Shown here in pieces: positions 6,031 through 49,563 of a stretch of DNA of 49,563 nt. Origin of the DNA: Acidobacteriota bacterium (GTDB taxonomy: Bacteria > Acidobacteriota > Vicinamibacteria > Vicinamibacterales > JAFNAJ01); the NCBI GenBank assembly GCA_016789685.1, contig JAEUQQ010000397.1, positions 1 to 49,563 on the forward strand, written 5' to 3'. Within the stretch, counting starts at the first letter, position 1. Each line of letters begins with the position of its first letter. The notes under the pieces were generated by a model. That model saw only the letters and a program-made list of their open reading frames with translations. It had not been told where the DNA came from and ran no database searches. The position numbers were made by a program, and so were the translations under genes.

Positions 6031-7125
6031 TCACAGCAACAGGGCTTCGACGCGGTAGGCATAGAGCCGCGCCGTCGTCTTCGACCACACGAACACGGTA
6101 AAACGGCCATCCTGCGATGCCACCAGCGCGATCGCGCTGCGCTGGTCGTGCACGAACTGCGCCGCCGACATGTGCCGCGTCCCGCCAAGCTGCGAGGTCG
6201 TCAGCACCTGTGGCGGACGTCCCGCGATCGGCTCGGTCAGCGTCACCTGCTCGATGGGCGGGGATCCGCGGCGGCGCACGATCTTCGCGCCAAACGCCAG
6301 CAACTCGTAGCTGTCGGTGATGACCGTCGCGCCATCGACGGCCGTCAGGCCGGCAATCGCGTCTACCGACGCGCGCAGTGACGCCTGCCAGGCCGGCGTG
6401 TGCTCTTCGTGCAAGCCGACCTCGACCAGCGTCGACAGGCTGCGATACGCCGGCGACACGGCGTACGCCATCGGCGTCACCACCGACTCGCGCCATCCGT
6501 CAGACGCCGCCGGCACGATGAGCAGCGATCCGCCGCGCCGGTGCGCCCGCATCGACACCGCGAGCTGCACGAGCACGTTGATCGATCCCGACCACGACGA
6601 GGGCGCCACGAGCCCGAGCAGCGAGGTCAACAGCGCCGGGCAGTCGGGCAGGTCAGACGCCGACTCGTCGACCAGCTTCACCTGGTCACCTGCCAGCACG
6701 GCGACGTTGACGTACTTTCCCGCCCCTTCACCGCGATGGTGCTTGACGACCAGCAGCCCCGGCTCCACGTTCTCGAGCACGAAGCAGTACTGCGGGACCG
6801 ACAGCGTCGTGCCCCACACCTGCAAGCCATCGGGGCCATGCCACACGCCGAAATGAATCCCCGGACGCTCGACGATGGGCGCGAGCTTGGCGAGGCCTCC
6901 CGGCGTGAACGGCAGGGGGCGCTCGAAGCGCATCGCGTGCATCGCCTGGTCGGGCGAGAGGTAGGCCACCGAAATCGTCGGGAAGTAGCCCTCTTCGCGC
7001 CTCAGGCTGGCCCAGAACGTCACGTTGACGATCTCTTCGATCACCGCCGTGTCCGGGACCGGCGCCAGCAGGTCGCCGGGCGCGGGTTCGAGGCCCTCGA
7101 TGTGCTTCGCGAAGTACGCGTGCAT
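6031..7125 (-). CDS. DAC (DisA_N)-like domain protein with an N-terminal putative sensor domain (DACNV-like architecture)
   Basis: This is the C-terminal part of track ORF 6031..9180, which is inflated by read-through of the antisense of the neighbouring kinase. The C-terminus ...LTAVDGATVITDSYELLAFGAKI...LGGTRHMSAAQFV...IALVASQDGRFTVF resembles the DGA / GTRHRAA motifs of diadenylate cyclases. Start taken as ATG 7125; an in-frame GTG at 7185 is an alternative. Confidence 0.7.
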   Translation of the reverse strand: MHAYFAKHIEGLEPAPGDLLAPVPDTAVIEEIVNVTFWASLRREEGYFPTISVAYLSPDQAMHAMRFERPLPFTPGGLAKLAPIVERPGIHFGVWHGPDGLQVWGTTLSVPQYCFVLENVEPGLLVVKHHRGEGAGKYVNVAVLAGDQVKLVDESASDLPDCPALLTSLLGLVAPSSWSGSINVLVQLAVSMRAHRRGGSLLIVPAASDGWRESVVTPMAYAVSPAYRSLSTLVEVGLHEEHTPAWQASLRASVDAIAGLTAVDGATVITDSYELLAFGAKIVRRRGSPPIEQVTLTEPIAGRPPQVLTTSQLGGTRHMSAAQFVHDQRSAIALVASQDGRFTVFVWSKTTARLYAYRVEALLL

Positions 7126-7272
7126 CAGCGGCGCAGCGATGCGGGCAGCGGGATAGGCGTCTCGGGTCGCGGCGTCCTGGGGCACGGCGCCCCGATCATA
7201 GCGCCACGCGCGATCCGGGGCCGGCCGGCTCAACCGCTCACGCCCCGTCGCCCCGGGTCCGATACTCCGGAT

Positions 7273-27740: not shown

Positions 27741-29759
27741 ATGAAACGACTCCTGCTCGCCCTGGCCTGCGGCACGACGGTCGCCGCCGCTGCGCCAGAC
27801 GTCGAATGGCGCCTGTACCTGGCGTCGATTGCCGCCGCCAACGGCGGGCTGCGCACGCACGAGACGTCGGTGACGCGGCGCTGGCTCGACGAGGCGCCAG
27901 TCACGCATCGCGGATGGGAGTGGCGCTACCTCGACCGCCTCGCTGACCTGAGCCTGCGATCGCAGGCGGCCCATGCCGGCGCCATCACGTCGCTCGCCGT
28001 GAGCGCCGACGGCCAGTGGCTGGCCACGAGTTCTCTCGACAAGACGGTGAAGGTCTGGGACGCCCGTTCGGGTGCGCCCGCCGCAACACTCGAGGGCCAC
28101 GGCGCCACCACGTGGACGCCGGCATTCAGGCCGGGCACGACCGAACTCGCCACCTTCGGATCCGACGGCACGGTGCGCGTCTGGTCCTGGCGCGAGGCGC
28201 GCGAAATCCGCCGGTTCGAGCGCGTCGGCAACGGCATGGGCGCGCTTGCGTGGAGTCCAGACGGCGCGCTGCTCGCCGCAGCGTCGTGGACGTTCGTGAA
28301 GGATCGCGGCGTGGTGGGGTGGATTCACGTCTGGGAGGCCGCCACTGGCGCCGTGCGCCTCGAGACCGAATACGGCGTCAAGCCGATCACGACGATTGCG
28401 TTCAGGCCCGACGGCCAGCAGGTTGTTGTCGGGACGTGGGACGGCTGGATCGGAGCGTTCGCGCCCACCGGCGACGGCCGGCCCGCCTTCGAGATCACGC
28501 TGCCCATGGACGACTCGTATCCCGCCCTGCAGGGCGTGGCCTTCTCACCCGACGGCGCGCTGTTCGCCGCCACGGCAAAAGACGGCCTCGCGCGGGTCTA
28601 CCACAGCGCCGATGGACGCCTGGCGCGCACGCTGACCGGGCACGCGCGCTGGGCCAACGCTGCCGCGTTCGGCATCACCGGCGCGTGGGTCGCCACCGCG
28701 TCGAGCGACGAGACCATCCGGCTCTGGGACGCGCGCACCGGCAGGCCACTCCGTGTCCTCCACGGCCACACGGCGTCGGTCAACGCCATCGCGGTCACGC
28801 CTGACGGCACCCGGATGATCAGCGGCGCAGCCGACGGCACCCTGCGGTGGTGGGACGCGGCGCTCGCCGACATCAGCGCGACCACCTGGCGTCACGATGC
28901 CGGCAACGTCTACGGCATCGACATGGCCCCGTCAGGGTCGCGCATCGTGACCGCCGGCTGGGGCGGCCGTCTGACGATGTGGGATGGTGACACCGGTCGG
29001 CAGGTCTGGCAGAAGCCCGTGCACGAGACGTCGGCCAACGCGGTGGCCTTCAGCCCCGACGGCACGCGGCTGATCAGCGGGGGCAACGACGGACGCCTCC
29101 AGGTCACGTCGGCCGCGACGGGCGAGGTCGTCGCGACGTGGGAACACGTCACCGACGGTCGCGCGGCCGGCATCGCGTGGAGCCGCGACGGCCGTTACGT
29201 CTTCGCCCCATCGTCGCGCCCGCACGGCAAGCTGTGGAACGCCGCCACCGGCACCGTGCACCACACGATCACGGGCACGAAGGGAGAGATCTACGACGTC
29301 GCCTTCAGCCCAGACAGCCGCCGGGTGGCCGTCGCGTGGACCAGTGGCGACATCCGCGTCGTGGATGTCGCGACGGGCGCCGACGCGTTTGCGCTCTCGG
29401 GCCACGAGGGTGCGGTGTACGCCGTCGCGTGGCATCCCGACGGCTCGCTGGTCGCCACCGGGGGCGCCGACCGGATGATCCGCGTGTGGGACGCGTCGAC
29501 GGGACGACTGCTCCGCACGATGTCGGGCCACACCGAGCTGGTGTACTCGCTCGACTTCTCGCCAGACGGCCAGCGACTCGTCTCGGCATCGACCGACCAG
29601 ACGGTCAGGCTCTGGGTACCGGCAAGCGGAGACGCCACGCTCACGCTGCCGTTTGCCTCGCAGGTCTACGGGGCGCAGTTCACGAGGGATGGGCGCCGCC
29701 TGGCCGTGTTGCCGATGGACGACACGGTCGTGATGCTCGACGGTTCATCGAAGCGTTGA
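27741..29759 (+). CDS. WD40-repeat protein (about 13 blades), secreted or anchored
   Basis: 672-aa ORF. After an N-terminal GWEWRYL segment it shows iterated H..V.....SPDG..LA(T/S)...D.T(V/I)(K/R)(V/L)WD units. Confidence 0.88.
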   Translation: MKRLLLALACGTTVAAAAPDVEWRLYLASIAAANGGLRTHETSVTRRWLDEAPVTHRGWEWRYLDRLADLSLRSQAAHAGAITSLAVSADGQWLATSSLDKTVKVWDARSGAPAATLEGHGATTWTPAFRPGTTELATFGSDGTVRVWSWREAREIRRFERVGNGMGALAWSPDGALLAAASWTFVKDRGVVGWIHVWEAATGAVRLETEYGVKPITTIAFRPDGQQVVVGTWDGWIGAFAPTGDGRPAFEITLPMDDSYPALQGVAFSPDGALFAATAKDGLARVYHSADGRLARTLTGHARWANAAAFGITGAWVATASSDETIRLWDARTGRPLRVLHGHTASVNAIAVTPDGTRMISGAADGTLRWWDAALADISATTWRHDAGNVYGIDMAPSGSRIVTAGWGGRLTMWDGDTGRQVWQKPVHETSANAVAFSPDGTRLISGGNDGRLQVTSAATGEVVATWEHVTDGRAAGIAWSRDGRYVFAPSSRPHGKLWNAATGTVHHTITGTKGEIYDVAFSPDSRRVAVAWTSGDIRVVDVATGADAFALSGHEGAVYAVAWHPDGSLVATGGADRMIRVWDASTGRLLRTMSGHTELVYSLDFSPDGQRLVSASTDQTVRLWVPASGDATLTLPFASQVYGAQFTRDGRRLAVLPMDDTVVMLDGSSKR

Positions 29760-33966: not shown

Positions 33967-36678
33967 ATGTCGATCCATGCCAGGCCGAGTGCCGAGCGCC
34001 GCTGGCGGCTGCCCGCGACGACCCTCGGCATCTCGCTGGCCGTCACGCTCCTGGCCTGGATCGTCGTCGATCGGCAGGTCGAGCGCTCAGAAGCCGCCAG
34101 GTTCGAGCGCCTGACCGATCGCGTGGTCACACGCGTCGCCGACAGTTTCGACATCGCCGACCGCGCCGTACGCAGCGGCCAGATCCTCCTCAGGCAACGC
34201 ACCACGGTTTCGTTCGCCGACTGGCGGCACTTCGTCGAAGCGACGATGCCGTACTTCCACCCCGGCATGGTCGGCATCGGCTACGTCGAGCGCATCGGGC
34301 GCGACGAGACCGACGCGCTCGAACAGCGGCTGCGGGCAGAAGGAGCCAGCGACGTCCGCGTGCAACGCCTCGGGTCGAACCCGCAGCGCTTCGTGGTGAC
34401 GCGCATCGAACCCGAGCGCCGGAACGCCGGGGTGCTCGGTCTCGACGTCGGCTCAGGCACCACGCGGCGCGGCGCGGCCGAACAGGCCATGCTGACCGGG
34501 CACGCTGTGCTCTCGCACCGCACCAGTGTCATCGAAGGCGGCAAGGAGTACCCGGGCTTCTTCCTGTTTGCGCCTGTCTACCGGCACGGCGCGCCCGTCG
34601 AGACGCCCGATCAACGCACGTCGGCCCTGCACGGCTGGGTGTACGTCTCGCTGCGCATCGACGAACTGCTCGAGGGACTCGACGAGGCGACCGCGCGCCA
34701 GATCGCCTTCACGGTCTCTGAAGACGAACGACCGGCGGGCACGCCGCCGTTCTACCGCCTCGCGGGCACGCCGTCACGCGGCCAGGGGCGAACACTCGCG
34801 CGCGAACTCGCGCTGCACGGGCGCAACTGGCGCTTCGACTTCGCGGCCCGGCCGGCGTTCCGCACGTTTGCCGACCGCTCGCTGCCGCTCGTGGTGCTCG
34901 CCGCCGGGCTCATCGCCTCGGTGCTCGCCACGCTCCTCGCGCTGGCGCTGCTCAACGCCCGCCGCCGCGCCGAGGGCCTGGCCGAGCGGATGACGGCGCA
35001 GCTGATCGAGTCGAACGCACAACTCGAAGACGCGGCCGCGACCGCCAGCCGTCTGGCGCTCGAAGCCACGCGCGCCAACGAGGCCAAGAGCCGCTTCCTC
35101 GCGATGATGAGCCACGAGCTGCGCACGCCGATGAACGGGGTGGTCGGCATGACCAGCCTGCTCCTCGACTCGCCGCTGTCGGCCGACCAGCGCGAACTGA
35201 CCGAGACCATCCGGACCAGCGGCAACGCGCTGCTGACGATCATCAACGACATCCTCGACTTCTCGAAGATCGAGTCCGGGCACCTCGAGCTCGACGACCT
35301 GCCGTTCGACGTCCGCGCGTGCGTCGAGGGCGCGCTCGACGTCTGCGCGCCCCGGGCCTTCGAGAAGGGCATCGGGCTGCACTACGACATCACCCCCGAG
35401 GTGCCTCGCCTCGTCTCGGGCGACGCCATCAGGCTGCGCCAGGTGCTCATCAACCTCCTCGGCAACGCGATCAAGTTCACCGAGCGCGGCGAGGTGGTGA
35501 TCCGGGTGCGCGGCCACGCGGGCGAGGGTGTGCACGACCAGCTGTCGTTCTCGGTCTCAGACACGGGGCCGGGCATTGCGGCCGGGCACCTCGAGCACTT
35601 GTTCGAGTCGTTCAACCAGCTCGACGCGACGGTGGCTCGCCGCTTCGGGGGCACGGGCCTCGGGCTGGCCATCAGCCAGCGACTCGTCACCGCCATGGGC
35701 GGCAGCATCGGCGTCGAGAGCGCTCGCGGCGCGGGATCGACGTTCTCGTTCACGGTACGGGCCCCGGCACTGGAGGCCGCCGTGGATCCGGCCGAGGTCG
35801 CGGCCATCCAGGCGCTCGCCGGCCGGCGCGTTGCCGTCGTGAGCCCGCACGCGACGGCACGGCGCATCATCGCCGACACGCTTGCCGCGTGGTCGGTGAC
35901 GTGCATCACTGCCGACAGCACCGACGCCGCGCTCGGCGCGGTGAGCGGCCGGGCGGGCATCGACGCCGTCGTGTTCGACCTGGCCGCGCTCGACGAGACC
36001 ACGATCGCATCGGCGCGCGCGCTCGCCACGGCGCCTGGCACGCCGGTCCGCGTCATCGCCCTCGCGCCGCCGGGCGCGACACAGGTCGGCGATCCGTTCA
36101 CCATGGCGGTGACCAAGCCGGCCAGGCCGCACGCCCTGCTCCACGCGCTTGCACGTGCGATCCAGGATCATGTGCCGGCGGTGCCCGCCAGTTCTTTGAT
36201 CGTGGCTGCAGGGCAACTCGCTGCGGGCGCACCGGCCGGGGCCGCCGAGGCCAGACGCGCACCCGAGCGCATCCTGCTCGCCGAAGACAACCTGGTGAAC
36301 CAGCGCGTGGCGACGCTCATGCTGCGGAAGCTCGGCTGCCCGGCAGACATCGCCAACGACGGCGCCGAGGCCCTCGCAGCCGTCGAGCGCGAGTCGTACG
36401 ACATCATCCTGCTCGACGTGCAGATGCCCGAGGTCGATGGCCTCGAGGTCGCACGACGCCTCGTGGCCGCCCGCCCGGTGCCCGGCGAGCGGCCGTGGAT
36501 GATCGCCTGCACCGCCAACGCGATGCCGGGCGACCGCGAGGCCTGCCTCGACGCCGGCATGGACGACTTCATCACCAAGCCGATCCAGCGCGGCGATCTC
36601 GAAGCGGCCCTCGATCGCGCCCGTCGAGGCATCGCCGCGAGAACCACGGCCACGCGTCCTGCATCGCCCGCGGCGTGA
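33967..36678 (+). CDS. CHASE-domain hybrid sensor histidine kinase (CHASE, TM, HisKA, HATPase_c, degenerate receiver, receiver)
   Basis: 903-aa ORF. The periplasmic CHASE-like region has GIGYVERI and [10 protein letters not shown]. The H-box is [16 protein letters not shown], the N/G boxes are [16 protein letters not shown] and GTGLGL, and the final receiver is [11 protein letters not shown]...[13 protein letters not shown]...ITKP. Confidence 0.9.
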
Positions 36679-37181: not shown

Positions 37182-37454
37182 ATGGCACACACGATCCAGA
37201 TCGAACGGGAGTCGGACACGAGCTTCCGCGTCACGGTGGATGATGGGCGCGGCACCAGCACGCACATCGTGTCGGTGATGCCGAGCGACGTCGAGCACTA
37301 CGCGCCGGGATGGACGCCCGAGGAACTGCTCGAGGCGTCGTTTGCCTTCCTGCTCGCACGCGAGCCCAGGGAGTCGATCCTGTCGCGCTTCGACCTGCCG
37401 GTGATCGAACACTACTTCCCCGACTTCGGCCGCGCCCTCAGGGGACGGCGCTGA
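37182..37454 (+). CDS. Conserved hypothetical small protein (90 aa)
   Basis: Clean ORF, tightly spaced between neighbours (16 nt and 5 nt gaps). The FLLAREPRESILSRFDLPVIEHYFPDF segment looks like a conserved family of unknown function. Confidence 0.6.
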   Translation: MAHTIQIERESDTSFRVTVDDGRGTSTHIVSVMPSDVEHYAPGWTPEELLEASFAFLLAREPRESILSRFDLPVIEHYFPDFGRALRGRR

Positions 37455-37459
37455 CGGCC

Positions 37460-38017
37460 ATGGCGTCGAGCGAACTCACCGAGTTGTTGCGCCGGGCGCA
37501 GGAAGGGGATGGCGAGGCCGCGGATGCGCTCTTTGCCGAGAGCTACCGCATGTTGACGCAACTGGCGCGCGCGCGTTTGCGGCGTCACGTCCGCTCCCCG
37601 ACGCTCGACACGAGTTCGCTGGTGCACGAGGCGTACCTGCGCTTCGTGTCGGCCGGCCGGCTCACGATCGCCGACAGCACGCACTTCAGGCGCTGGGCCG
37701 GTCGCGCGATGCGATCGGTCATCGTCGACATCGCGCGCCGGCGGCTCGCCGAACGGCGCGGCGGCGGTGTCGAGCACCTCACCTTCACCGGCAGCCTGCC
37801 GATCGCGCAGGCCGGCGGCGACGCATTCGTCGTCCGCGTGCACGAGGCGCTCGAGACGCTTGCGCAGGTGGATGCGCGGGCCGCCGAGGTCGTCCAGTTG
37901 CGTTACTTCGCCGGGATGACCGAACCCGAAGTCGCCGAGGCGCTGGGCATCGGCGAGCGCACCGTCAGGCGCGACTGGGAAAAGGCGCGGCTCCTGCTCG
38001 CCGACCTGCTCGGGTAA
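37460..38017 (+). CDS. ECF sigma factor of the Sig-70_X6 / ECF-like type (TIGR02999-like)
   Basis: ORF 37310..38017 trimmed to ATG 37460. Features: ELTELLRRAQEGDGEAADALF, LVHEAYLRF, and region 4 VVQLRYFAGMTEPEVAEALGIGERTVRRDWEKAR. Confidence 0.88.
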   Translation: MASSELTELLRRAQEGDGEAADALFAESYRMLTQLARARLRRHVRSPTLDTSSLVHEAYLRFVSAGRLTIADSTHFRRWAGRAMRSVIVDIARRRLAERRGGGVEHLTFTGSLPIAQAGGDAFVVRVHEALETLAQVDARAAEVVQLRYFAGMTEPEVAEALGIGERTVRRDWEKARLLLADLLG

Positions 38018-38078
38018 GGGCGCGCACCGCGCCTGGCGACGCAGTGGACCCGCGGGCGGCGTAGAATACGCGCGTACC

Positions 38079-40925
38079 ATGGACATTGCGGCGCTCAAGA
38101 CCCTCAACCGGCTGGTCGAGCAGGTACTCGATCTCGCGCCGTCTGATCGGACGACGTGGGTCGAGAGCCTGGGGCCCGAGTACGAGGCGTTCAAACCACG
38201 GCTGCGCGCCATGCTCGACAGGCTCGAGGCCACGGGCGACGCCGCATTCCTCGCATCGCTGCCGACGTGGGACGCCACCATCGACGCCGGGCACGGCCAC
38301 CCCGGCCAGGCCTGCGCGGCCGGTGCGCTGGTCGGCCGCTACCGGCTGGTCAGTGAAATCGCGGCCGGGGGCCAGGGCGCGGTCTGGCTCGCCGAACGCG
38401 CCGACGGCATGGTCGATCGCCCGGTCGCGCTCAAGCTGCCGCTCGGCCTCGCCTTCAGGCCGGGCCTCGCCGATCGGATGTCGCGCGAGCGCGAGATCCT
38501 GGCACGCCTGACGCACCCGCACATCGCCCGGCTGTACGACGCGGGGGTGAGCGACGACGGCACGCCCTTCCTGGCGCTCGAGTACGTCGATGGCCGCCCC
38601 GTCGATCGGTTCGTCGCCGACCATCGCCTCGGGGTCGATGCCATCCTCCGGCTGTTCGTGCAGATCGTCGACGCGGTCGCCTATGCGCACGGGCAGCTCG
38701 TCATCCACCGTGATCTGAAGCCATCCAACATCCTGGTGACGGGCGACGGCCAGGTACGCCTGCTCGACTTCGGCATCGCGAAGCTGATCGACGATGCCCC
38801 GGAGCGCGACTCGACGATGACGGTGGTCGGCGGGCGCGCGTTGACCCTGGCCTACGCCTCGCCCGAGCAGGTGCTGCACGAGACGCTGGGCGTCGCGACC
38901 GACGTGTACTCGCTCGGCGTGGTGTTGTACGAGCTGCTCTGCGGCCGCCGGCCGCACGTGCCCGCGCGCGACACGAGCGGTGCGCTCGAACACGCCATCC
39001 TGCACGACGAACCGCCGCTGCCGAGCCAGGTCGCCCTCGACCCGTCACGCCGCGGCATCCTGCGCGGGGATCTCGACACCATCCTGCTCAAGGCGCTGAA
39101 AAAGGCGCCGGCCGAGCGATACGCCGCGGCGAACGCGCTCGGCGACGACCTGCGACGGTATCTCGACGGATTGCCGGTGTCGGCGAGGGCCGACAGCCCG
39201 GCCTACCGGTTGCGGAAGTTCGTGGCGCGCCATCGGCTGGCGGTTGGGGCGAGTGCCGCGGTGCTCGCGGCCGTCGTCGCCGGCGCGGGCGTCGCCGTGT
39301 GGCAGGCCCGCGTTGCGCGCGCGGAGCGCGATCGCGCCGATGCGGTGAAGGCGTTCGTGACGTCGGTGTTTCGCGACATCGATCCCGCGTTGCGCGGGTC
39401 GGGCCGCCCCCTGACGGCCACCGACGTCCTCGCGCAGGCTGTCGATCGCCTCGATCGGCGGAGCGAACTCGCCGCCGAGCCGGCCGTCAGGGCCGAACTG
39501 CTGCGCGTGCTCGGCGCGAGCTTCCTCGGGGTGGGCGACGCGGATCGGGCCAACGAGATCCTGCCCCGCGCGCTCGCAGAAACGACGACGCTCACCGGGG
39601 CCGGTTCCGACGAGGCCATCGACACCGAGATCCGCCTGGCCAGGGCCAAGTACCTCGGGGGCAAGGTCGATGAGGCCAACGCGCACGTCGCGCACGTGCG
39701 GCAGGTACTCGCCGACTCGGGCCGCCTCGCGTCCGAGGCGTTCGTCGAACTCGAGCTGCTGCGCACCGAGATCATCATCAACCGTGGCGGATTCAGGAAG
39801 CCCGAAGCCCGCACCGCGGCCGAAGAAGCGCTGGGTGCCGCCGAGCGCCTCCTGCCCCCCGTGCACCAGTTGCGGGCGCGGGCGCTGCAGCAGATGGCCA
39901 CCGTCATGCGCTGGCAGAACGAGGACGCGGCCGCGGCCGCGCACGCAGAGCGGGCGTACCGCATGTTGCTCGACGTGCAGGGCAACGACGCGCGGCACAT
40001 CAGCGTCATCATGGCGCAGAACGAATACGGACGCGCGCTGTACCAGGTCGGCCGCACGCGCGAGGCCCTGTCGCACCTGAAGGAGGCGGCGGCGAATGGC
40101 AACGCGTCGCTGAAGGACGATGCCGTGCTGCGGCAGCACCTGCTGGGCACCCTGGCGAACTCGCAGCTGCAGTTCGGTGAGGTCAAGGAGGGACTGGCCA
40201 ACCTCGACCTGGCCATCTCGCTCGATCTCAGGGGAGTGAACCTCAGCCCCGCGTACCTTGCCGGCCAGCGATTCGTCCGCGCGCGTGCGTACCTCGCGGC
40301 GCGACGACTCGAAGAAGCCCTGCGACTCTACGACGCGTCGGTGGCCGAGTACACGAAACTCGGCGACAGGAACACCCTGATGACGGCGACGAGCGAACGT
40401 GCCGACGTCCTCGTGAGGCTCGGACGCCTGCGCGAGGCCGAGCAGGCCATCGCCCCGGTCATCGCGAGCAGGGGCCGCGCGATCACGCCGGCCGTGCGGC
40501 GGGGCGTCTGGCTCCAGGCCGAGATCCACCGTCGCCGCGGCGAAACCACACGGGCGATGCCGCTGGTGCGCGAAGCCATCAACTTCGAGCCGACCAACAC
40601 CGCAAACGCGATCGCCAGGGCGCAATACCAGGTCACGCTGGCGCTCTCGCTGCTTGCCACGGGCTCCGTGCCAGACGCTCGCGCGGCCGTTGAGGCGGCC
40701 CTGGCGGCACTGCGGGCGAACCAGGGCGTCATGAACCCGATCCAGGCCGACGCCCTCGCGGCCCTGGCACAGGTCGAATGCGCCTCGGCCAACCGTGCGG
40801 CGGGCCTCGCCCTGCTCGAACAGGTCGATGCCTTCTGGCAGGCGTTCGACGCGACGCTCCCCGACGCCGTCGAGGCGGCCCGCCGCCTGCGCGACGCCCG
40901 GGCTGGCGCCACCGCCCCACGCTGA
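38079..40925 (+). CDS. Ser/Thr protein kinase with TM segment and long TPR-like C-terminal region
   Basis: 948-aa ORF. Kinase motifs: GGQGAVWLA, VALK, HRDLKPSNIL, DFGIAK, ASPEQ. A hydrophobic segment LAVGASAAVLAAVVAGAGVAVW follows, then helical repeats. Confidence 0.9.
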   Translation: MDIAALKTLNRLVEQVLDLAPSDRTTWVESLGPEYEAFKPRLRAMLDRLEATGDAAFLASLPTWDATIDAGHGHPGQACAAGALVGRYRLVSEIAAGGQGAVWLAERADGMVDRPVALKLPLGLAFRPGLADRMSREREILARLTHPHIARLYDAGVSDDGTPFLALEYVDGRPVDRFVADHRLGVDAILRLFVQIVDAVAYAHGQLVIHRDLKPSNILVTGDGQVRLLDFGIAKLIDDAPERDSTMTVVGGRALTLAYASPEQVLHETLGVATDVYSLGVVLYELLCGRRPHVPARDTSGALEHAILHDEPPLPSQVALDPSRRGILRGDLDTILLKALKKAPAERYAAANALGDDLRRYLDGLPVSARADSPAYRLRKFVARHRLAVGASAAVLAAVVAGAGVAVWQARVARAERDRADAVKAFVTSVFRDIDPALRGSGRPLTATDVLAQAVDRLDRRSELAAEPAVRAELLRVLGASFLGVGDADRANEILPRALAETTTLTGAGSDEAIDTEIRLARAKYLGGKVDEANAHVAHVRQVLADSGRLASEAFVELELLRTEIIINRGGFRKPEARTAAEEALGAAERLLPPVHQLRARALQQMATVMRWQNEDAAAAAHAERAYRMLLDVQGNDARHISVIMAQNEYGRALYQVGRTREALSHLKEAAANGNASLKDDAVLRQHLLGTLANSQLQFGEVKEGLANLDLAISLDLRGVNLSPAYLAGQRFVRARAYLAARRLEEALRLYDASVAEYTKLGDRNTLMTATSERADVLVRLGRLREAEQAIAPVIASRGRAITPAVRRGVWLQAEIHRRRGETTRAMPLVREAINFEPTNTANAIARAQYQVTLALSLLATGSVPDARAAVEAALAALRANQGVMNPIQADALAALAQVECASANRAAGLALLEQVDAFWQAFDATLPDAVEAARRLRDARAGATAPR

Positions 40926-42803: not shown

Positions 42804-43203
42804 GGTGACGTACGACTACGTCATCGTCCGCGTCGTGCCGCGCGTCGAGCGCGGAGAGCGCGTCAACGTCGGCGTCATCCTGTCGTGCGTGGATGCGGAG
42901 TTCCTCGACGCCCGCATCGCCCTCGACGAACGACGCCTCTGCGCACTCGACGGCGGCGTGGATCTCGAGGCCGTTCGCGCCGGCCTCGACAGCATCCGGC
43001 GGATCTGCGCGGGCGGACCCGATGCGGGCGCCATCGGCGAGCTCCCGCCACGCGGCCGCTTCCGCTGGCTCGCGTCACCACGCAGCACCATCATCCAGAC
43101 GTCTCGCGTCCACACCGGGCGCACCTGCGATCCGGTGGCCACGCTGGATCGCCTCCTCGCCACCGTGGTGCTGGCGCCCGACGCCGATGCCGCACGCCGC
43201 TGA
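42793..43203 (+). CDS. DUF3037 domain protein
   Basis: This lies in the frame of track ORF 42649..43203. GTG at 42793 (or 42796 / 42805) overlaps the upstream stop. The N-terminus YDYVIVRVVPRVERGERVNVGVILSC is the DUF3037 hallmark as I remember it. Confidence 0.75.
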   Translation: MVTEVTYDYVIVRVVPRVERGERVNVGVILSCVDAEFLDARIALDERRLCALDGGVDLEAVRAGLDSIRRICAGGPDAGAIGELPPRGRFRWLASPRSTIIQTSRVHTGRTCDPVATLDRLLATVVLAPDADAARR

Positions 43204-43927
43204 TCCCCAGGCACCAGGTGCGTCGCCGTTCGCGAAGTCGTCGCGGACGCGGCTGACGACGCGCGACCTCGGACGCTTCCCGTCAGGCACGTTGTTCGAC
43301 CGTATCGGCCGGGCGGTCTGCCACGCGGAATGCCTGCCGCGCAAGGAACTGTTCGAAGCGTGGGAAGTTGCGCGCCGTGTCCGCAGGGTCTGCCGGGGCG
43401 GCCGTGTCGTCGACCTCGCCGGCGGACACGGCATGCTGGCGATGGCGATGCTGCTGCTCGACGACTCGTCGCCATCGGCGCTGGTCGTCGACACCGGCAT
43501 TCCTGCCTCGGCCGGAGGCGTGCACGACGCCATCGTCGCCACGTGGCCGCGCCTGGCGGGGCGCATCGCGTTTGCCAACGAGTCACTCGACGACGTCGCC
43601 CTCGGTCATGACGACATCGTCGTCGCCAGCCACGCGTGCGGCAGCCTGACCGATCGCGTGCTCGATCGTGCGACCGCCGCCAATGCCCGTGTCGCCGTCC
43701 TGCCGTGTTGTCACGACCACGCCATCGGTGATGCCGGCGCGCTCGGCGGATGGGTCGATGGCTCGCTGGCCATCGACATCGAGCGCGTCCACACGCTCGA
43801 ACGACGTGCCTACCGCGTGCGCACGCACACCATCTCCCCGGAGATCACGCCGAAGAACCGACTGCTGATCGCATGCCCGGTGCCACGCGGTGGGCCGCGC
43901 GACGATCGAGGGGCTCAGGCGGGCTGA
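43187..43927 (+). CDS. Class I SAM-dependent methyltransferase-like protein
   Basis: This lies in the frame of track ORF 42893..43927. ATG 43187 overlaps the DUF3037 stop by 17 nt. VVDLAGGHGMLAMAML resembles SAM-binding motif I. The functional call is tentative. Confidence 0.6.
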   Translation: MPHAADPQAPGASPFAKSSRTRLTTRDLGRFPSGTLFDRIGRAVCHAECLPRKELFEAWEVARRVRRVCRGGRVVDLAGGHGMLAMAMLLLDDSSPSALVVDTGIPASAGGVHDAIVATWPRLAGRIAFANESLDDVALGHDDIVVASHACGSLTDRVLDRATAANARVAVLPCCHDHAIGDAGALGGWVDGSLAIDIERVHTLERRAYRVRTHTISPEITPKNRLLIACPVPRGGPRDDRGAQAG

Positions 43928-44883
43928 CCGTCTGGGTCGGGCACCAGGCCCGCGGCCTGCGCGCACGCGCGCACGTGGGCCATCTGGCGGAGGACGCTCT
44001 CGAAGGGCCCCATCGCCTCGACGAGCCGCTGCTCGGTGAGGGCGTCGTCCTGGCAGACCTCGAGGATGGGTACCGTCGCTGCCTCGACGTCGGGCAGCCC
44101 TGCGCTTCCAGCGCGCGTGGCGATCTCGTGCAGCAGGCGCCGCACGTGCACGGCCCGCTGTTCGGCGAGTTGCTGTTTCGCGCTGGCGTCGAGCTGCGCG
44201 CGCTTCAACTCGGTCAGGTCGCGGACCGAGACCAGGAAGGCGGGCTCGTTCATCCACTCGAACTGCACGACACGCATCTCGCACACGCGGGCGTCGCCCG
44301 AGTGCGCCACGGTGATCTCGACGGGTTCGCCGTCGCGCACCGAGAAACCCAGCCGTTCGTCGATGAAGTCGTCGCGCCGGCGGTTGAACAGGACCAGCGC
44401 GGCGTCGTTGACGTAGCGGACGAGACCCGATCGCGCGACGACGAGGATGGCGTCGGGCGTCGCATCGAGCAGCCGCGCCGTCTGCCGGTACTGCTCGCGC
44501 GCCCGGTTCCGCTCGATCACGTAGAGCATGCAGTGCGCCAGCAGCGGACTGTTCGCATCGTCCTTGCTCATGAGATCTTCGGCGCCCTGCCGGATGGCGA
44601 ATCGCCGCGCCGATCGATCCACGGCGCCTGAAATCACGACAATGGGCGCCCCGTCGGCCGCCGGGCGGATGCGATTGAGCGTCTCGATGCCGCTCGAATC
44701 CGGCACGTGCAGGTCGAGGATGACGGCATCGACGCGCCGCGCGGCCAGCACGCCGAGGGCCTGCGCGACGGTGGTGGCGCGCAGCACCGCGAACGTCACG
44801 AATGGGGTGTCTTCGAGGCGTTCGGTCAGGAGGTCGGCATCGCCGGGGTTGTCTTCGACCAGCAGGATCCCGTAGGTCAGCAT
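43915..44883 (-). CDS. Response regulator receiver + PAS domain protein
   Basis: ORF 43915..44892. ATG 44883 gives MLTYGILLVEDNPGD and overlaps the upstream stop (ATGCTGA). Receiver residues: DNPGD, AVILDLHVPD, VVISG, MSK. The PAS-like region is LLDATPDAILVVARSGLVRYVNDAAL. Confidence 0.85.
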   Translation of the reverse strand: MLTYGILLVEDNPGDADLLTERLEDTPFVTFAVLRATTVAQALGVLAARRVDAVILDLHVPDSSGIETLNRIRPAADGAPIVVISGAVDRSARRFAIRQGAEDLMSKDDANSPLLAHCMLYVIERNRAREQYRQTARLLDATPDAILVVARSGLVRYVNDAALVLFNRRRDDFIDERLGFSVRDGEPVEITVAHSGDARVCEMRVVQFEWMNEPAFLVSVRDLTELKRAQLDASAKQQLAEQRAVHVRRLLHEIATRAGSAGLPDVEAATVPILEVCQDDALTEQRLVEAMGPFESVLRQMAHVRACAQAAGLVPDPDGQPA

Positions 44884-46481
44884 CGCGCCCATTCACCCGT
44901 GTCGCCGACGGCGACGACCGCGCCCAGCAGGAACCCCTGGGCGAACTGCACGCCGAGGTCGGCCACGACCCGCGCGTCGGCCTCGGTCTCGACGCCCTCG
45001 GCGATGATCTGCGGCCCGAGGGGCATCAGGCACCCGAGGAGGCGCTCGAGGATGCGGCGCCGCCCGGGATCGTCAGCGACGCCATGCACGACCGATCGAT
45101 CGATCTTGACGATGTCGGGTTCGAGGACGACGAGCGTCTCGAGCGAGCTCCTGCCGAACCCCACGTCGTCGAGCGCGATCAGCACGCCGGCGTCCTTCAT
45201 GGCGCGCAGGCTGGGCAGCAGCATGGCGGGGGCGCCGATCAGCTCCTGCTCTGAAAGTTCGAGCGCCACGCGCGGCCCACCCGCCTGCACGAGGATGTCG
45301 CGCAGGGCTCGTGCCGGGGTATCGAGGAACGTCGATGGAAAGATGTTCACGTGCACGCAGTCGTCGCCGGTGAGGTACTGCGTGGCCTCGATGCACCGCC
45401 TGAGGCAGAGGAGGTCGGCGGCGCACAGCACGTTGGCATGGCGGGCAGCCGAGAACAACGCGGCGGGGTGCTCGAGCGGCGTGTTCTTGGGCCCGCGGAC
45501 CAGGAACTCGTGCACGACACCGGCCGCGCCGTGGGGGCCGACGATGCGCTGCGCCATCACGCGAATCGCCTGCGGGTCGCTGAGGATCTCGCGGACGTCG
45601 GATCCGACGGGGTGCAGCGGGAGGTCGACGCCGTGCGCCGTGACACGGTCCTTGCCGGCGCGTTTGCTCGCGATGAGCGCCGACTCTGCGCCGGCCAGGA
45701 CTTCCTTGAGCGACGCCGCAAACGGCGGGATGGCGGTCAGGCCGAGGCTCACGGTGACCTCGGCGCGGATGCCGGGCACCGACACGGGCAGGGGCGTGCT
45801 GTGGATGGTGTTCCTGAGCTTGGTGGCGACGAGGAATCCCTCGGCGAGCGTGGTGTTGGGCAGCAGGACGAGGAACTCGTCGCCGCCGATGCGTCCGATG
45901 CGATCGACGGGCGATCGGAGCGCGCGCACGAGCGCGGTGGCGATGGTGCGCAGCGTGGCGTCGCCGGCGCTGTGCCCGGCCACTTCGTTGATCCCCTTGA
46001 AGTCATCGCAGTCGATGAGGATCGCGGCCGCGTGCCCACCGGCTCGCCCGAGTCCGCCGACGACCTCGAGCAGCTCCGCCTCGATGCCGCGCCGGTTGAG
46101 GACGCCGGTGAGCGGATCGACGAGGGCCAGTTCCTCGAGTTGCCGGTTCGAGCGGGCGAGTTCGGCCAGGGCCCGCACACGATCGGTCACGTCGCGCAGC
46201 AGGACGAGGTATGCGGCCTGCCGCTGCCACGGGATGGGCGCGACGCGCATCTCCATGGTGCGGCCGCTGCGCAGTTCGATCTCGGTGAGGATGTCGCCGA
46301 CCACCGGCACGCCGAAGAGTGTCCCGAGCAACTCGCCCGTCCCGACCCCGAAGGCCGACGTCGCAGCCGGATTCGCGAAGAGGATTTCGCCGTCCGGGCC
46401 CACGATGAGCACCCCATCGGGACTCTCGCGGAGCAGGGTCTGGTACTGGATGAGCGATTCGAGACGCGGCTTGGTCACCAT
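44877..46481 (-). CDS. PAS-GGDEF-EAL protein (c-di-GMP synthesis/hydrolysis)
   Basis: ORF 44877..46700 trimmed to ATG 46481 (MVTKPRLESL). The PAS region is SPDGVLIVGPDGEILFANPAA and the GGDEF region is DPLTGVLNRRG...RIGGDEFLVLL. EAL-domain blocks: HEFLVRG, LELSEQE, LDDVGFGRSSL, VKIDRS, AEGVETE, QFAQGF. Confidence 0.9.
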   Translation of the reverse strand: MVTKPRLESLIQYQTLLRESPDGVLIVGPDGEILFANPAATSAFGVGTGELLGTLFGVPVVGDILTEIELRSGRTMEMRVAPIPWQRQAAYLVLLRDVTDRVRALAELARSNRQLEELALVDPLTGVLNRRGIEAELLEVVGGLGRAGGHAAAILIDCDDFKGINEVAGHSAGDATLRTIATALVRALRSPVDRIGRIGGDEFLVLLPNTTLAEGFLVATKLRNTIHSTPLPVSVPGIRAEVTVSLGLTAIPPFAASLKEVLAGAESALIASKRAGKDRVTAHGVDLPLHPVGSDVREILSDPQAIRVMAQRIVGPHGAAGVVHEFLVRGPKNTPLEHPAALFSAARHANVLCAADLLCLRRCIEATQYLTGDDCVHVNIFPSTFLDTPARALRDILVQAGGPRVALELSEQELIGAPAMLLPSLRAMKDAGVLIALDDVGFGRSSLETLVVLEPDIVKIDRSVVHGVADDPGRRRILERLLGCLMPLGPQIIAEGVETEADARVVADLGVQFAQGFLLGAVVAVGDTGEWARC

Positions 46482-46506
46482 GGGTCGTGGAACCTGGCGG
46501 CGGCCC

Positions 46507-48063
46507 TTACGCCCGTCCGTCAGGCGGACTGCCGTCGCGTTCGGGCGGCCCCGACGACCTGAACATCTCGCCGAGTCGCGTGCGCTCCTCGTCGAAGGTG
46601 TAGGTGGGCGTGCCCGTGAGAATGCCGTGCACCCCGCGGAACGGCGCGCGCACGTGCAGGCCGCTGTCGTCGATGAAGTACTCGCGGATGCCCTTGTCAT
46701 GGAACGTGCCGCGCATCTTCAGGACGGTGAGGCCACGGCGCATCTCGCCGTGCAGCTCGACGTAGCGCAGCAGGATGATCGTGTCGGTGATCGTCGAGAT
46801 GTGCGTCTCGGTGATCGACTCGCCGCCCGTGATCATCGAGGTCGTGTTGGTGAACAACCCGGTGATCTCGAGGTGCTTGATCGTGCTCGTGAGGGCGATG
46901 ACGAACTCGCGGAACGACTTGGGAGTCGAGACGCGCTCGAACGCCGACATGCTGTCGACCGCCACGCGCTTCGGCGCGAACGCGATGATGTCGCGCTTCA
47001 TCTGGAGCAGGTGATCCTCGAGGCCCATCACCTCGGGGTAGCGGCACACGATGCGCAGCAACCCGTCACGCTCGGCCTGCTCGAAGTCGACGCCCCACGA
47101 AGCCGCGTTGCGCGTGAGCTGCTCGCGGCTCTCCTCGGCCCCGAACAGCAGCGCGCGCTCGCCGGCCTCGATCGCGGCCTTCACGTACTGCGCGACCATG
47201 AGCGTCTTGCCGGTCCCCGTGGCGCCGCTGACCAGGATGATCGAGTCGCGGTACATCCCGCCGCCGCACATCTTGTCGAGTTCCGCGACGCCAGACGACA
47301 CGCGGATGACCGACGACTTCTGCTTGAGCTCGATCGCCGACAGCGGGATGATCGTCACGCCGTCTTCGGTGTCGATCGAGAAGGGGTACTCGCCCTTGTG
47401 GTGCGTCGCGCCGCGGAATTTCAGGATCTCGACCGTCCGCCGGCGCTTCTCCTGCTCGAGCCGGTTGCGCAGCAGGATGACGTTGTCGGCGACGAACTCC
47501 TCGACGCCCCACCGGCCGACGCCGCCTTCCTCGTCGGTCCGCTCCATCGTCACGAGCGTCGTGACGCCCAGCGTGCGCAGGCCCGCGGCGATGCGGTGCA
47601 GTTCGCGGCGGACGACGTTGGCGTCGGTGAACTGCGGGAACAGCGCGCCAATCGCGTCGAGGATGACCCGCTTGGCACCGACCGAGCGGATGCCGTTCTC
47701 GATGCGGGCGAGCAGGGCCGAGAGGTCGTACGGCCCGGCCGCGATGGTCTCTTCGCCGGGTTCCGGCGTGGCATCGACGACGGCGATCTTCTTCTCGGCG
47801 AGCAGGCCCTCGAGATCCCACCCGAACGACCGCACGTTCTGCATCAGGTCGCCCGGCGATTCCTCGAACGTCACGAACACGCCGTTCTCGCCGAAGTCGC
47901 GAACGCCCGCGAGCAGGAACTGCAGGGCCATGACCGTCTTGCCGCTGCCCGCGGTGCCCGAGAGCAGCGTGCTGCGGCCCTTGGGGATGCCCCCGTTCGC
48001 GATCTGGTCGAACCCGATGATGCCCGTGGCGAGTTTCGGAAGTTCCTGCGGAAGGTGCATCAC
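46507..48063 (-). CDS. kaiC: Circadian clock protein KaiC homolog (double RecA-like ATPase)
   Basis: 518-aa ORF. Walker A motifs are GTAGSGKT (CI) and GATGTGKT (CII). Catalytic Glu pairs are TFEESP and [34 protein letters not shown]...[13 protein letters not shown] matches the phosphosite segment of cyanobacterial KaiC. The start is GTG 48063 or ATG 48060 (GTGATG), overlapping the kaiB stop. Confidence 0.95.
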
Positions 48064-48353
48064 GCCCGCTTCCCCTTTTCGAGTAGTTCGAGATCGAGTC
48101 CGAGCAGGACCTTCTCCCGGTCGCTGAGGTCGCCGATGATCTTCCGCACCGGCTCCGGCAGGCGTTTGACCAGCGTTGGCGTCGCGAGGATCTTCTCGTT
48201 CTCGGCCAGGGCGGGATGCTCGAGCACGTCGATCACGTCCACGTCGTACAGGCCCTGCAACTCCGCGTCGCAGATCGCGCGCAGGTTGTCGATCGCCCGT
48301 TGTGAATGTGTCGTGCGTCCCGTGATGTAGAGGCGTAGCTTGAACTTCGTCAT
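48060..48353 (-). CDS. kaiB: Circadian clock protein KaiB homolog
   Basis: Track ORF 48060..48362 has a GTG start. I prefer ATG 48353 ([12 protein letters not shown]), which has GGGAG 8 nt upstream. The sequence LRLYITGRT...[49 protein letters not shown] is highly KaiB-like. Confidence 0.93.
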
Positions 48354-48365
48354 GGTCGGCACTCC

Positions 48366-49184
48366 CTAGGCACGCCGTCGGCGCTGCCCGACGCGATAGT
48401 AGTCGACGAGCAGGCCCATCATTTCGAGCGCCAGCAGCCTCGCCTCGAACACGATCGACCGGGAGTGGGGATCTGGCTGGATGGCGATGGCGCGGTCGAG
48501 CGCCGCGACGTGGAGGTCGAGCAGGTCGCGCGGGCCGCCGCCCGCATCGCCCAGGTCGGTGGCGATGCGCTCCATGTCGACGCGCGCGGCGGTCACGGTG
48601 TCGCTCCGGCGCTGCAGGTACGGCTCGAGCAGGAGGCCGTAGGCCCTGACGAGATGCTCGAACACCTCGGGATGCCGCACCGACACGGCGCCGGACCCTG
48701 CCAGCGCCGCCGTCACCGTCGTGGCCTGCGCGCTCGACGACAGCGCGCGGTAGCGCTCGAGGGATCGCTGCAGTTCGTGCAGTTGCGCTTCGCGGATCCG
48801 CGTGATGGCGTACCCGATCGCGCGCTGCAGCGTGTGGGCGCGGGCCTCGGCCTTGGCCAGGTAGTCTTGCGCGCCCGCGTCGATGCAGGCCAGCGCCAGT
48901 TGTTCGTCGTCGCTGCCGGTCAGGACCACGATGGGAACCTGGCTCGCGGTCTCGCGCAAGATGCGCACACCATCGAGCCCCTGGCTGTCTTCGAGTCGCA
49001 GGTCGAGCACCACCACGTCGACCGGTTCGGTGCGCAGCGTGTCGATCGCGTCGGCGAGCCTGGGAACGTGGACGACCTGGTAGCGTTCAGGGTCGGCCTG
49101 ATCGAACATCTCGGTCACCAGGAGCGCGTCGCCGGGATTGTCTTCGACGAGAAGCACGCGCGTCGTGGTGATCGGCGTTGTCAT
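48366..49184 (-). CDS. Response-regulator receiver fused to a helical C-terminal domain resembling the KaiA C-domain (KaiA3-like architecture); an RsbU_N-like bundle is the alternative
   Basis: 272-aa ORF ending 3 nt upstream of the kaiB ORF. The receiver is LLVEDNPGD, VVVLDLRLED, VVLTGS, DYLAK. The C-terminal 110 aa, AYGLLLEPYL...RDLLDLHVAALDRA...VFEARLLALEMMGLLVDYYRV, aligns by eye with the remembered KaiA C-terminus. Confidence 0.8.
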   Translation of the reverse strand: MTTPITTTRVLLVEDNPGDALLVTEMFDQADPERYQVVHVPRLADAIDTLRTEPVDVVVLDLRLEDSQGLDGVRILRETASQVPIVVLTGSDDEQLALACIDAGAQDYLAKAEARAHTLQRAIGYAITRIREAQLHELQRSLERYRALSSSAQATTVTAALAGSGAVSVRHPEVFEHLVRAYGLLLEPYLQRRSDTVTAARVDMERIATDLGDAGGGPRDLLDLHVAALDRAIAIQPDPHSRSIVFEARLLALEMMGLLVDYYRVGQRRRRA

Positions 49185-49467
49185 ACGGCGCCGTCTGGCC
49201 GCGAGCCGGCGAGCGGTCGTTCACGCCACGAAGATGGCAGGGAGCCTCGGCCACGGCCGGCGCCCGGGGGGCGGGCGCGAACGGGAACGATCGGCACTGG
49301 GGTCGGCCGGGCTGAGGCTGGGGGCATGGCGCGAACGCGAGTCCTGCCCAAGAGTCTCGACCTCATGCGTGCTGGTGGCTAGTCAGCCAGATTCGCGAGC
49401 GTGTCAGGATTTTCCCTACACGGCGCCCCCCCGTGCCGCGACGGCCGGCACACGACCGCCTGCGGCC

Positions 49468-49563
49468 TCAGTCGACAAGCCCGTTCTGCATGCTGTACCG
49501 CGCAATCTCGACATGGCTCGTCAGCCCGGTCTTCTCGCGGATGCGCGCGAGGTAGGTGGCGAC
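49468..49563 (-). CDS. LuxR/GerE-type HTH C-terminus, probably a NarL-family response regulator (5' part lies outside the window)
   Basis: My minus-strand translation from the window edge gives VATYLARIREKTGLTSHVEIARYSMQNGLVD, then a stop (TGA at 49468-49470). This is typical of the end of a GerE helix-turn-helix. Confidence 0.6.
   Translation of the reverse strand, partial: VATYLARIREKTGLTSHVEIARYSMQNGLVD

Follow-up and report, generated by a model that had tools for sequence, protein, structure and literature searches.

The window analyzed here, a 49,563-bp stretch of DNA (70% G+C) from an Acidobacteriota bacterium (contig JAEUQQ010000397.1), contains the clock genes kaiB and kaiC and, directly ahead of them, a gene for a 272-residue protein (48366..49184, minus strand) in which a receiver domain is joined through a helical linker to a KaiA-like carboxy-terminal domain (C-domain). 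Judged by its sequence, this protein is a member of the KaiA3 family, and with it the kaiA3-kaiB-kaiC set of the genome is complete. Both the composition and the gene content of the window are non-cyanobacterial, and the locus combines this three-gene set with an intact phospho-acceptor site in a high-GC genome. Whether free-running KaiA-dependent protein clocks exist outside cyanobacteria is a question of long standing in chronobiology; the proteobacterial KaiBC systems characterized so far have no KaiA and run as hourglasses. The locus offers a concrete set of three proteins for reconstitution, and the acceptor aspartate, D61, offers a handle on the two-component entrainment of a Kai timer.

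The KaiA3 family was defined by Köbler et al. (2024, Nat Commun 15:7674; PMC11372060). In Synechocystis, KaiA3 completes a second oscillator: KaiC3 phosphorylation increases in its presence in vitro, most KaiC3 stays unphosphorylated when it is deleted, and together with KaiB3 it supports KaiC3 phosphorylation cycles of about 24 h. A direct interaction of KaiA3, KaiC3 and KaiB3 has also been published for this ortholog (PMC11372060), and Mukaiyama et al. (2025; PMC12081879) observed in vitro oscillation of KaiCs that depend on KaiA3, from Synechocystis and Cyanothece. Köbler et al. further noted orthologs with kaiA3B3C3 synteny in five non-cyanobacterial genera, namely Bradyrhizobium (BTAi1, ORS278), Rhodospirillum, Roseiflexus, Chloroflexus and Chloroherpeton, none of which they tested (PMC11372060). 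The analysis of Dvornyk & Mei (2021; PMC8113500) spans cyanobacteria, and a term search of its main text returns no mention of non-cyanobacterial or receiver-type KaiA homologs. The KaiA3 family, its non-cyanobacterial orthologs and the kaiA3B3C3 synteny are already known, and the locus is less novel than the first-pass annotation of the window had assumed. What our analysis adds is the scale of the family and its spread beyond earlier reports, into Gemmatimonadota, Planctomycetota, Myxococcota, Acidobacteriota, Actinomycetota and many Alpha- and Betaproteobacteria; a fully canonical and strictly conserved receiver in the subfamily of the window protein; and independent support for the KaiA relationship at the level of fold and of sequence profiles.

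Relationship of the 272-residue protein to KaiA3 and KaiA

The protein was recognized as an open reading frame (ORF) and by its BLASTP matches to KaiA3 proteins. The sequence of Synechocystis KaiA3 (Sll0485, WP_010873803), taken from Data S1 of Köbler et al. (2024), aligns with residues 9-264 of the window protein at 32% identity (E=1e-29), an alignment that runs through the receiver, the linker and the C-domain and places D61 opposite D65 of Sll0485. The two proteins have in common the motifs TxVTA, PE(L/V)F, YGxLLE, PRDxxxxH and (E/G)RLxxLE(L/M)MG(Y/L)L...YR. The similarity to WP_012044398 of Bradyrhizobium sp. BTAi1, which Köbler et al. entered as a KaiA3 ortholog (PMC11372060), is stronger, with 44% identity (E=7e-58) and two identical stretches, GGPRDLLDLHV and RLLALEMMGLLVDYYR. 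A hidden Markov model (HMM) built from the C-domains of the family alone also finds published KaiA3s: Sll0485 (6e-21) and four further orthologs are matched at 2e-14 to 3e-45, including those of Roseiflexus (4e-27), R. rubrum (2e-14) and BTAi1 (3e-45). In addition, more than 120 close full-length homologs are 56-92% identical to the window protein; where the sources give homologs a name, it is only 'response regulator' or 'CheY-like'. A look-up of the exact window protein returned no record. The full-length homology to Synechocystis KaiA3 and to the BTAi1 ortholog, the KaiA-like predicted fold and the linkage to kaiBC all bear out the earlier suggestion of a KaiA3-type protein in the kaiA slot.

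Synechocystis KaiA3 resembles the window protein in its receiver with an acceptor Asp, its TxVTA linker, its C-domain with PRDxxxxH and RLxxLExMG..x.YR, and the position of its gene directly upstream of kaiB. The differences are that the window protein is shorter (272 as against 299 residues) and retains the canonical Lys (DYLAK) and Thr of the receiver, whereas the Lys is shifted or missing in cyanobacterial KaiA3s; that kaiC is contiguous in the window, but lies elsewhere in the genome of Synechocystis; and that the host is not a cyanobacterium. The BTAi1 protein belongs to the same subfamily and its gene stands in the same kaiA3-kaiB-kaiC order, but its five key receiver positions read E-S-D-N-G and those of the R. 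rubrum protein G-F-V-D-A, both degenerate, while all five are intact in the window protein. Canonical KaiA, as in S. elongatus PCC 7942 (PF21714 + PF07688), shares the position in the gene cluster, a similar size and the combination of a REC-like amino-terminal domain with a four-helix C-domain. Its pseudo-receiver, however, lacks the acceptor Asp present in the complete receiver of the window protein, and its linker differs.

The KaiA-like C-domain comprises residues 167-265 (48390..48686, minus strand). In the AlphaFold2 model it consists of a short helix (167-170) and a four-helix bundle (172-190, 201-213, 218-235 and 239-265), in agreement with the earlier description of the last ~110 residues as helical. 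Because Foldseek searches with the full-length model were swamped by receiver domains, the C-domain was modeled separately (mean predicted local distance difference test score, pLDDT, 83) and searched against 350,542 PDB chains. The first 11 ranks are all taken by KaiA C-domains (1q6a, 5jwr, 4g86, 5n8y, 1r8j, 1v2z and 5c5e), which makes KaiA-C the best match of the predicted fold in the whole PDB. These matches have probabilities of 0.99-1.00 and root mean square deviations of 3.0-4.0 Å over about 100 columns, with template modeling (TM) scores of 0.57-0.61 when normalized to the query and 0.53-0.69 when normalized to domain-length KaiA structures. Globins and designed bundles rank below KaiA, and the top 50 matches include 12 KaiA chains and no RsbU_N. 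The structure comparison suggested in the first-pass annotation thus comes out in favor of KaiA.

A remote relationship is also detectable at the level of sequence profiles. A shallow profile compared by hhalign with a single KaiA sequence was not significant (probability 0.5%), with the register already right. When a deep profile of 281 family C-domains was compared by hhalign with the C-domains of 120 KaiA homologs, the score was 32.4 (P=2.2e-5, probability 76%) over 94 columns at about 14% identity; among 23 controls, a reversed KaiA profile gave P=0.024 and the best of 22 column-shuffled profiles P=0.01. The alignment pairs AYGLLLEPYL with SYREIVLSYF, DLHVAALD with EIHMELMD, and the terminal YR of both proteins, so that H225, R249 and Y263-R264 of the window protein stand opposite H237, R262 and Y276-R277 of S. 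elongatus KaiA. This is the register that had been proposed by eye, including the His and the terminal YR. In 102 cluster representatives these residues are nearly invariant (H225 in 102, R249 in 101, Y263 in 100 and R264 in 98). Together, the model and the profiles point to a C-domain with a KaiA-like predicted fold and a detectable, if remote, relationship to KaiA.

The first-pass annotation had offered as a competing reading an RsbU_N-like bundle unrelated to KaiA function. The RsbU amino-terminal domain of B. subtilis (PF08673; 1W53, 2J6Y), a helical dimerization and partner-binding domain, does have weak profile similarity to the family (hhalign P=2.7e-4 over 65 columns, with the motif P-x-x-(I/L)-I-x-I-H aligned), while KaiA and RsbU_N are not detectably similar to each other (P=0.03). 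The weak similarity of the family to both suggests that the KaiA3-type domain sits between KaiA-C and RsbU_N in sequence space, and the shared fold of KaiA-C and the RsbU amino-terminal domain was discussed by Köbler et al. (PMC11372060). With profile P values of 2e-5 for KaiA-C against 3e-4 for RsbU_N, and only KaiA among the top Foldseek matches, the RsbU_N reading is no true alternative to a KaiA relationship. RsbU_N also differs in context: it is amino-terminal to a PP2C phosphatase, binds the RsbT kinase and has no link to kaiBC, and the window protein has no PP2C domain.

Pfam gives a sparser picture. The RsbU_N profile (PF08673) was matched neither by the full-length window protein (E<=1) nor by its isolated C-domain (E<=10) nor by 69 family sequences, that is, the window protein and 68 homologs (E<=10). 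The KaiA pseudo-receiver profile (PF21714) has no match in the window protein, no Pfam or NCBIfam family spans its carboxy-terminal half, and Pfam scans recognize no DNA-binding or enzymatic domain in the C-domain. As controls, RsbU itself matches RsbU_N at 3e-32 and PF07688 is present in 120 of 120 KaiA homologs. In Synechocystis KaiA3, the Pfam KaiA match is nearly full-length, but at E=0.0042 and 17.7 bits it stays below the 22.2-bit threshold.

The receiver, the Kai partners and the gene linkage

The receiver occupies residues 10-119 (48828..49157, minus strand; PF00072 Response_reg, 1.1e-20) and is complete, as had been noted, with every quoted motif in place: LLVEDNPGD (E14, D15), VVVLDL (the acceptor D61), VVLTGS (T89) and DYLAK (K111). 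In the alignment of 69 homologs, four of these residues (E14, D61, T89, K111) never vary, and the fifth, D15, reaches at least 90% conservation; among 117 close full-length homologs, each of the five is kept in 116-117. The full-length AlphaFold2 model (mean pLDDT 89) gives the receiver a (beta-alpha)5 fold with pLDDT above 90, followed by a long linker helix (residues 116-161; 48702..48839, minus strand), and its Foldseek matches reach about 150 residues into proteins that consist of a REC domain and a long helix (6oaq, 3f7a). Between linker and C-domain lies the motif TxVTAALAGSGA (residues 155-166; 48687..48722, minus strand), in which T155, T158, A159 and G165 are invariant in the 69 homologs and whose counterpart in Synechocystis KaiA3 is TSVTARMFGS. 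It overlaps the sole part of the model in which pLDDT drops below 50 (residues 154-161). By analogy with the linker strand of KaiA, the motif might dock onto KaiB or KaiC.

Window KaiC, a double-domain protein of 518 residues (46507..48063, minus strand; NCBIfam KaiC, 724 bits against a cut-off of 408), retains both Walker A motifs, both EE pairs and the HISTITD phosphosite segment, in which S423 and T424 have the same numbering as the Ser423 and Thr424 mapped in Synechocystis KaiC3. Its best PDB score is to the reconstructed ancestral KaiC-beta 8ZN5 (674 bits), followed by S. elongatus (587) and R. sphaeroides (370). The length of the protein, the missing extension, the phosphosite numbering and the best match to KaiC-beta speak for a putative KaiC3 or group III type. 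The KaiBC hourglass of Rhodobacter sphaeroides (KaiC2 type, 8DBA) likewise is a non-cyanobacterial kaiBC system, but its KaiC has 568 residues and a carboxy-terminal extension that replaces KaiA; the window KaiC lacks this KaiC2-type extension and has a KaiA3-type gene alongside. In 50 KaiCs encoded beside KaiA3-like genes, a segment at the A-loop and the start of the KaiA-binding tail is conserved and the remaining tail is not, a pattern compatible with a bound partner at that segment, if no proof of one. KaiB (48060..48362, minus strand; Pfam KaiB, 2.1e-28; NCBIfam NF006798, 118 bits against a cut-off of 110) has Synechocystis KaiB as its best solved relative (1wwj, 8e-30), with the carboxy-terminal GLDL segment included.

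The three genes are tightly packed. ORFs and profile matches confirm the order X-kaiB-kaiC that the first-pass annotation had likened to kaiABC, and the size of the first protein is similar to that of KaiA. The codon-position G+C of ORF 48366..49184 (0.76/0.44/0.89) matches that of well-supported window genes. Its stop codon, TAG (48368..48366), overlaps the Shine-Dalgarno-like GGGAG of kaiB (48362..48366; the minus strand reads TAGGGAGTGCCGACCATG), the G at 48366 being the last base of the one and the first of the other, and the junction reads GCC-TAG-GGAGTG-CCGACC-ATG on the minus strand. The overlap, and the end of the 272-residue ORF 3 nt ahead of the mechanical kaiB ORF (GTG at 48362, 100 residues), are as originally described. 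The likelier start of kaiB is the ATG at 48353, 8 nt past GGGAG, since the resulting 97 residues match the length of homologous KaiBs. The stop of kaiB and the start of kaiC overlap in turn (GCGTGATGCAC). In the sequence databases, some entries, such as P0139 (208 residues), fuse a KaiA3-like end to KaiB, and one 90%-identity cluster (that of P0006) mixes KaiA3-like proteins with KaiB; such fused entries are probably products of read-through gene calls at the tight TAG/Shine-Dalgarno junction.

Two further genes follow on the same strand: a PAS-GGDEF-EAL gene (44877..46481; Pfam EAL 7e-33, GGDEF 4e-31, and PAS), whose likely start, the ATG at 46481, is 25 nt past the kaiC stop, and a gene for a 325-residue REC-PAS protein (43915..44892; Response_reg 2.8e-16, and PAS), the last of the cluster, which ends there against a methyltransferase-like gene that runs toward it on the plus strand. 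On the upstream side, about 280 nt from the kaiA3-like gene, the window edge cuts a NarL/LuxR-type response regulator gene, of which the 3' end remains (49468..49563, minus strand; 31 codons, translation VATYLARIREKTGLTSHVEIARYSMQNGLVD*). Rfam and tRNA scans found no rRNA or tRNA in the window, a consensus scan of 43000-49563 for promoters and terminators found nothing exceeding the shuffled background, and no canonical kaiA1B1C1 set is visible within the 49.5 kb.

The linkage to kaiBC extends well beyond this genome. A scan of one genome per GTDB species with two motifs of the window protein's subfamily yielded 65 loci, 62 of which have at least 700 nt of downstream sequence. In 57 of the 62, kaiC is directly downstream, and in 54 both kaiB and kaiC are, so that co-occurrence with kaiBC outside cyanobacteria, raised earlier as a check, is borne out. 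The loci carry the labels of about 12 non-cyanobacterial phyla. These labels include Gemmatimonadaceae and Gemmatimonadales, Rubrivivax, Alphaproteobacteria (Phenylobacterium, photosynthetic Bradyrhizobium, Jiella, Acuticoccus, Rhodospirillaceae), Acidobacteriota (Pyrinomonadaceae, Solibacteraceae, Vicinamibacterales), Myxococcota ('Deltaproteobacteria'), Planctomycetota, Chloroflexota, the actinomycete Mangrovihabitans, Pseudomonadales, Nitrospinota and Cloacimonadota. None of the 65 loci is cyanobacterial, which is to be expected, as the search motifs would miss the cyanobacterial branch. The closest genome relatives are metagenome-assembled genomes labeled Gemmatimonadaceae, Rubrivivax, Phenylobacterium and Deltaproteobacteria, all outside the five published genera. 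A word-indexed search with the C-domain alone stopped short of distant relatives, yielding only 26 proteins that were short or fragmentary. When cluster representatives at 50% identity were searched exhaustively with an HMM, 1536 clusters matched at E<=1e-3, of which 887 also passed E<=1e-10.

KaiA3-like C-domains also end proteins with other amino-terminal modules, such as 4HB_MCP-HAMP-PAS(-PAS), PAS only, REC-PAS-PAS and REC-REC. In our numbering of proteins and loci, these are P0215, P0220, P0226, P0237, P0266, P0269, P0146, P0157 and P0187, together with L066 4001-6052 and L067 2050-4101. The 683-residue form that resembles a methyl-accepting chemotaxis protein (MCP; P0220) is encoded divergently beside an operon of kaiB, kaiC and a hybrid kinase, which suggests that a chemoreceptor-like 'KaiA' also appears to exist. 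Mangrovihabitans endophyticus has at least three kaiA3-like-kaiB sets, two on one contig (L024) and a third on another (L060); in L024, kaiC is seen after the second set only and that copy is cut by the locus end, whereas the kaiC of L060 is complete.

Proposed function and alternatives

From its homology to the Synechocystis protein, we propose, with a probability of roughly 0.7, that the 272-residue protein would act as a KaiA3-family dimeric activator of KaiC autophosphorylation that is gated by phosphorylation of D61. Its gene would be co-transcribed and translationally coupled with kaiB and kaiC. The four-helix C-domain would dimerize and bind the conserved A-loop and tail segment of KaiC, thereby promoting autophosphorylation at S423/T424, and KaiB would counteract the activation on phosphorylated KaiC. 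A sensor kinase may phosphorylate D61 and so switch or tune the activator, which would couple KaiC phosphorylation to an environmental or metabolic signal. Control through D61 is to be expected from a strictly conserved, complete receiver with a long helix to the C-domain, and the near-total conservation of the active site fits such gating, though a fit of this kind is no proof. KaiC binding, stimulation of phosphorylation, D61 gating and any oscillation are all steps that we infer.

Several observations weigh against this interpretation. The window protein is only 32% identical to the sole characterized KaiA3, and no experimental test of any non-cyanobacterial KaiA3 was found in the literature searched. 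R. rubrum KaiC was arrhythmic with S. elongatus KaiA, the sole KaiA tried (PMC12081879), and Köbler et al. note poor conservation at the residues of the KaiA-KaiC contact, even for Synechocystis KaiA3/KaiC3 (PMC11372060). Of the two Pfam searches proposed in the first-pass annotation, that for KaiA (PF07688) was as negative as that for RsbU_N, in the full-length protein (E<=1), the isolated C-domain (E<=10) and the 69 family sequences (E<=10), and an HMM of close-family C-domains run against PDB sequences found no KaiA and no RsbU, but only insignificant matches to OspC and a designed maquette. The Foldseek E-values are themselves weak (0.06-0.7), though ranking and probability are clear; the fold evidence is the exclusive ranking of KaiA. 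In the deep alignment, H271 of S. elongatus KaiA, which we take to be the essential His of canonical KaiA, falls opposite Leu258, and therefore the KaiA hallmarks are not all kept. Finally, the window operon lacks the hybrid kinase of most related loci, and no kinase is assigned to D61.

The alternative closest to the proposed activator concerns the kind of timer rather than the role of the protein. The system may be an hourglass driven by the environment rather than a clock that runs freely. The protein would then activate KaiC only in the one receiver phosphorylation state that is set by a light, redox or metabolite sensor, so that KaiC phosphorylation tracks the external cycle and damps in constant conditions. 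A true receiver under strong constraint, and the PAS or MCP-HAMP sensor modules that replace it in other members, speak for such a timer. The characterized proteobacterial KaiBC systems are hourglass timers, and Synechocystis without KaiA1B1C1 shows reduced, possibly damped backscatter oscillations, for which the authors suggest a low-amplitude drive by KaiA3B3C3 (PMC11372060). Against it stands the oscillation of the KaiA3-KaiB3-KaiC3 systems of Synechocystis and Cyanothece in vitro without a phosphodonor (PMC12081879). We consider the hourglass a serious contender, though short of even odds; it is a refinement of the gated activator and not exclusive of it. A much broader proposal would make the KaiA3-like C-domain a general KaiC-activating output module far beyond cyanobacteria, with lineage-specific inputs (a true receiver, PAS, or an MCP-type four-helix bundle with HAMP), and would make the D61-gated KaiA3, KaiB and KaiC of the window a self-sustained, entrainable oscillator of about 24 h in a non-phototrophic, non-cyanobacterial bacterium; this we regard as speculative and, on balance, unlikely.

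Two other alternatives would deny the protein a role as KaiC activator, and we find both improbable, the second markedly more so. The protein could be mainly an output or adaptor response regulator of a KaiBC timer, which takes phosphoryl groups from a Kai-controlled histidine kinase and whose C-domain binds KaiB-KaiC or another effector, relaying the state of KaiC, for example, to the nearby c-di-GMP (cyclic di-GMP) enzyme or LuxR-type regulator. The intact, strictly conserved receiver, the REC-PAS hybrid kinase that follows kaiC in most loci, the PAS-GGDEF-EAL and NarL-type genes that flank the window cluster, and a C-domain with neither a DNA-binding nor an enzymatic domain would all suit such a regulator. 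With the Synechocystis ortholog, however, KaiC3 phosphorylation goes up both in vitro and in vivo (PMC11372060); what the whole family conserves is the C-domain and not the receiver, and this domain is paired with many sensor modules, as would be expected of an effector that acts on KaiC; and some members (R. rubrum, BTAi1) have degenerate receivers. It is also conceivable that a GHKL-type kinase (the HATPase_c of a histidine kinase), and not KaiC, docks on the C-domain as a dimeric four-helix platform, the kaiBC linkage reflecting a shared regulon only. The RsbU_N similarity with its aligned PxxxIxIH motif and the histidine kinases conserved beside kaiC speak for this idea, but the similarity to KaiA-C is stronger and spans the whole domain, Pfam RsbU_N is silent on all 69 family sequences while detecting RsbU itself, RsbU_N structures are absent from the Foldseek top 50 that holds the 12 KaiA chains, no PP2C phosphatase domain is attached, and the published contact between KaiA3, KaiC3 and KaiB3 is a direct one (PMC11372060).

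Neighboring signaling genes

In most related loci, the gene after kaiC encodes a hybrid histidine kinase of the form REC-PAS-HisKA-HATPase_c(-REC). Such kinases were located at L006 7243-9165, L012 7239-9083, L018 7299-9182, L049 7132-9030, L060 7226-9118, L003 7224-8717 and L029 7190-9100, and are about 615-640 residues long in six of these seven loci and 497 in L003. The 325-residue REC-PAS protein of the window resembles the amino-terminal part of this kinase, without the kinase core, and tblastn searches with it find matches right after kaiC in most loci. That the gene might be a hybrid kinase interrupted in frame was considered and ruled out, as there are multiple stops downstream, no kinase domain is present, and the region is held by the convergent methyltransferase-like gene on the plus strand. 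A PAS-GGDEF-EAL arrangement like that of the window occurs in the Planctomycetota locus L022. That the window has PAS-GGDEF-EAL and kinase-less REC-PAS genes in place of the hybrid kinase suggests that its lineage has an output through c-di-GMP.

The NarL/LuxR-type gene is a candidate output regulator. It recurs upstream, in the same orientation and with 57-73% identity, in the loci most closely related to the window (L001-L004, L006-L010 and L022), and the copy in L068 is nearly identical to the window fragment. Two hybrid histidine kinases encoded elsewhere in the window, one with the architecture CHASE-HisKA-HATPase_c-REC (33967-36678, plus strand) and the other MASE11-HisKA-HATPase_c-REC (6400-9033, plus strand), might donate phosphoryl groups to the orphan receivers in the kai cluster.

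Other genes of the window include an extracytoplasmic function (ECF) sigma factor (PF07638) followed directly by a 948-residue Ser/Thr protein kinase with TPR repeats (37310-40925, plus strand), a further signaling pair at a few kb from the kai cluster. A 795-residue ORF (15049-17436, minus strand) contains family-B DNA polymerase and exonuclease domains; family-B DNA polymerases are uncommon in bacteria, and the ORF might mark a mobile or repair-related element. A 672-residue protein with WD40 beta-propeller repeats is encoded at 27741-29759 on the plus strand.

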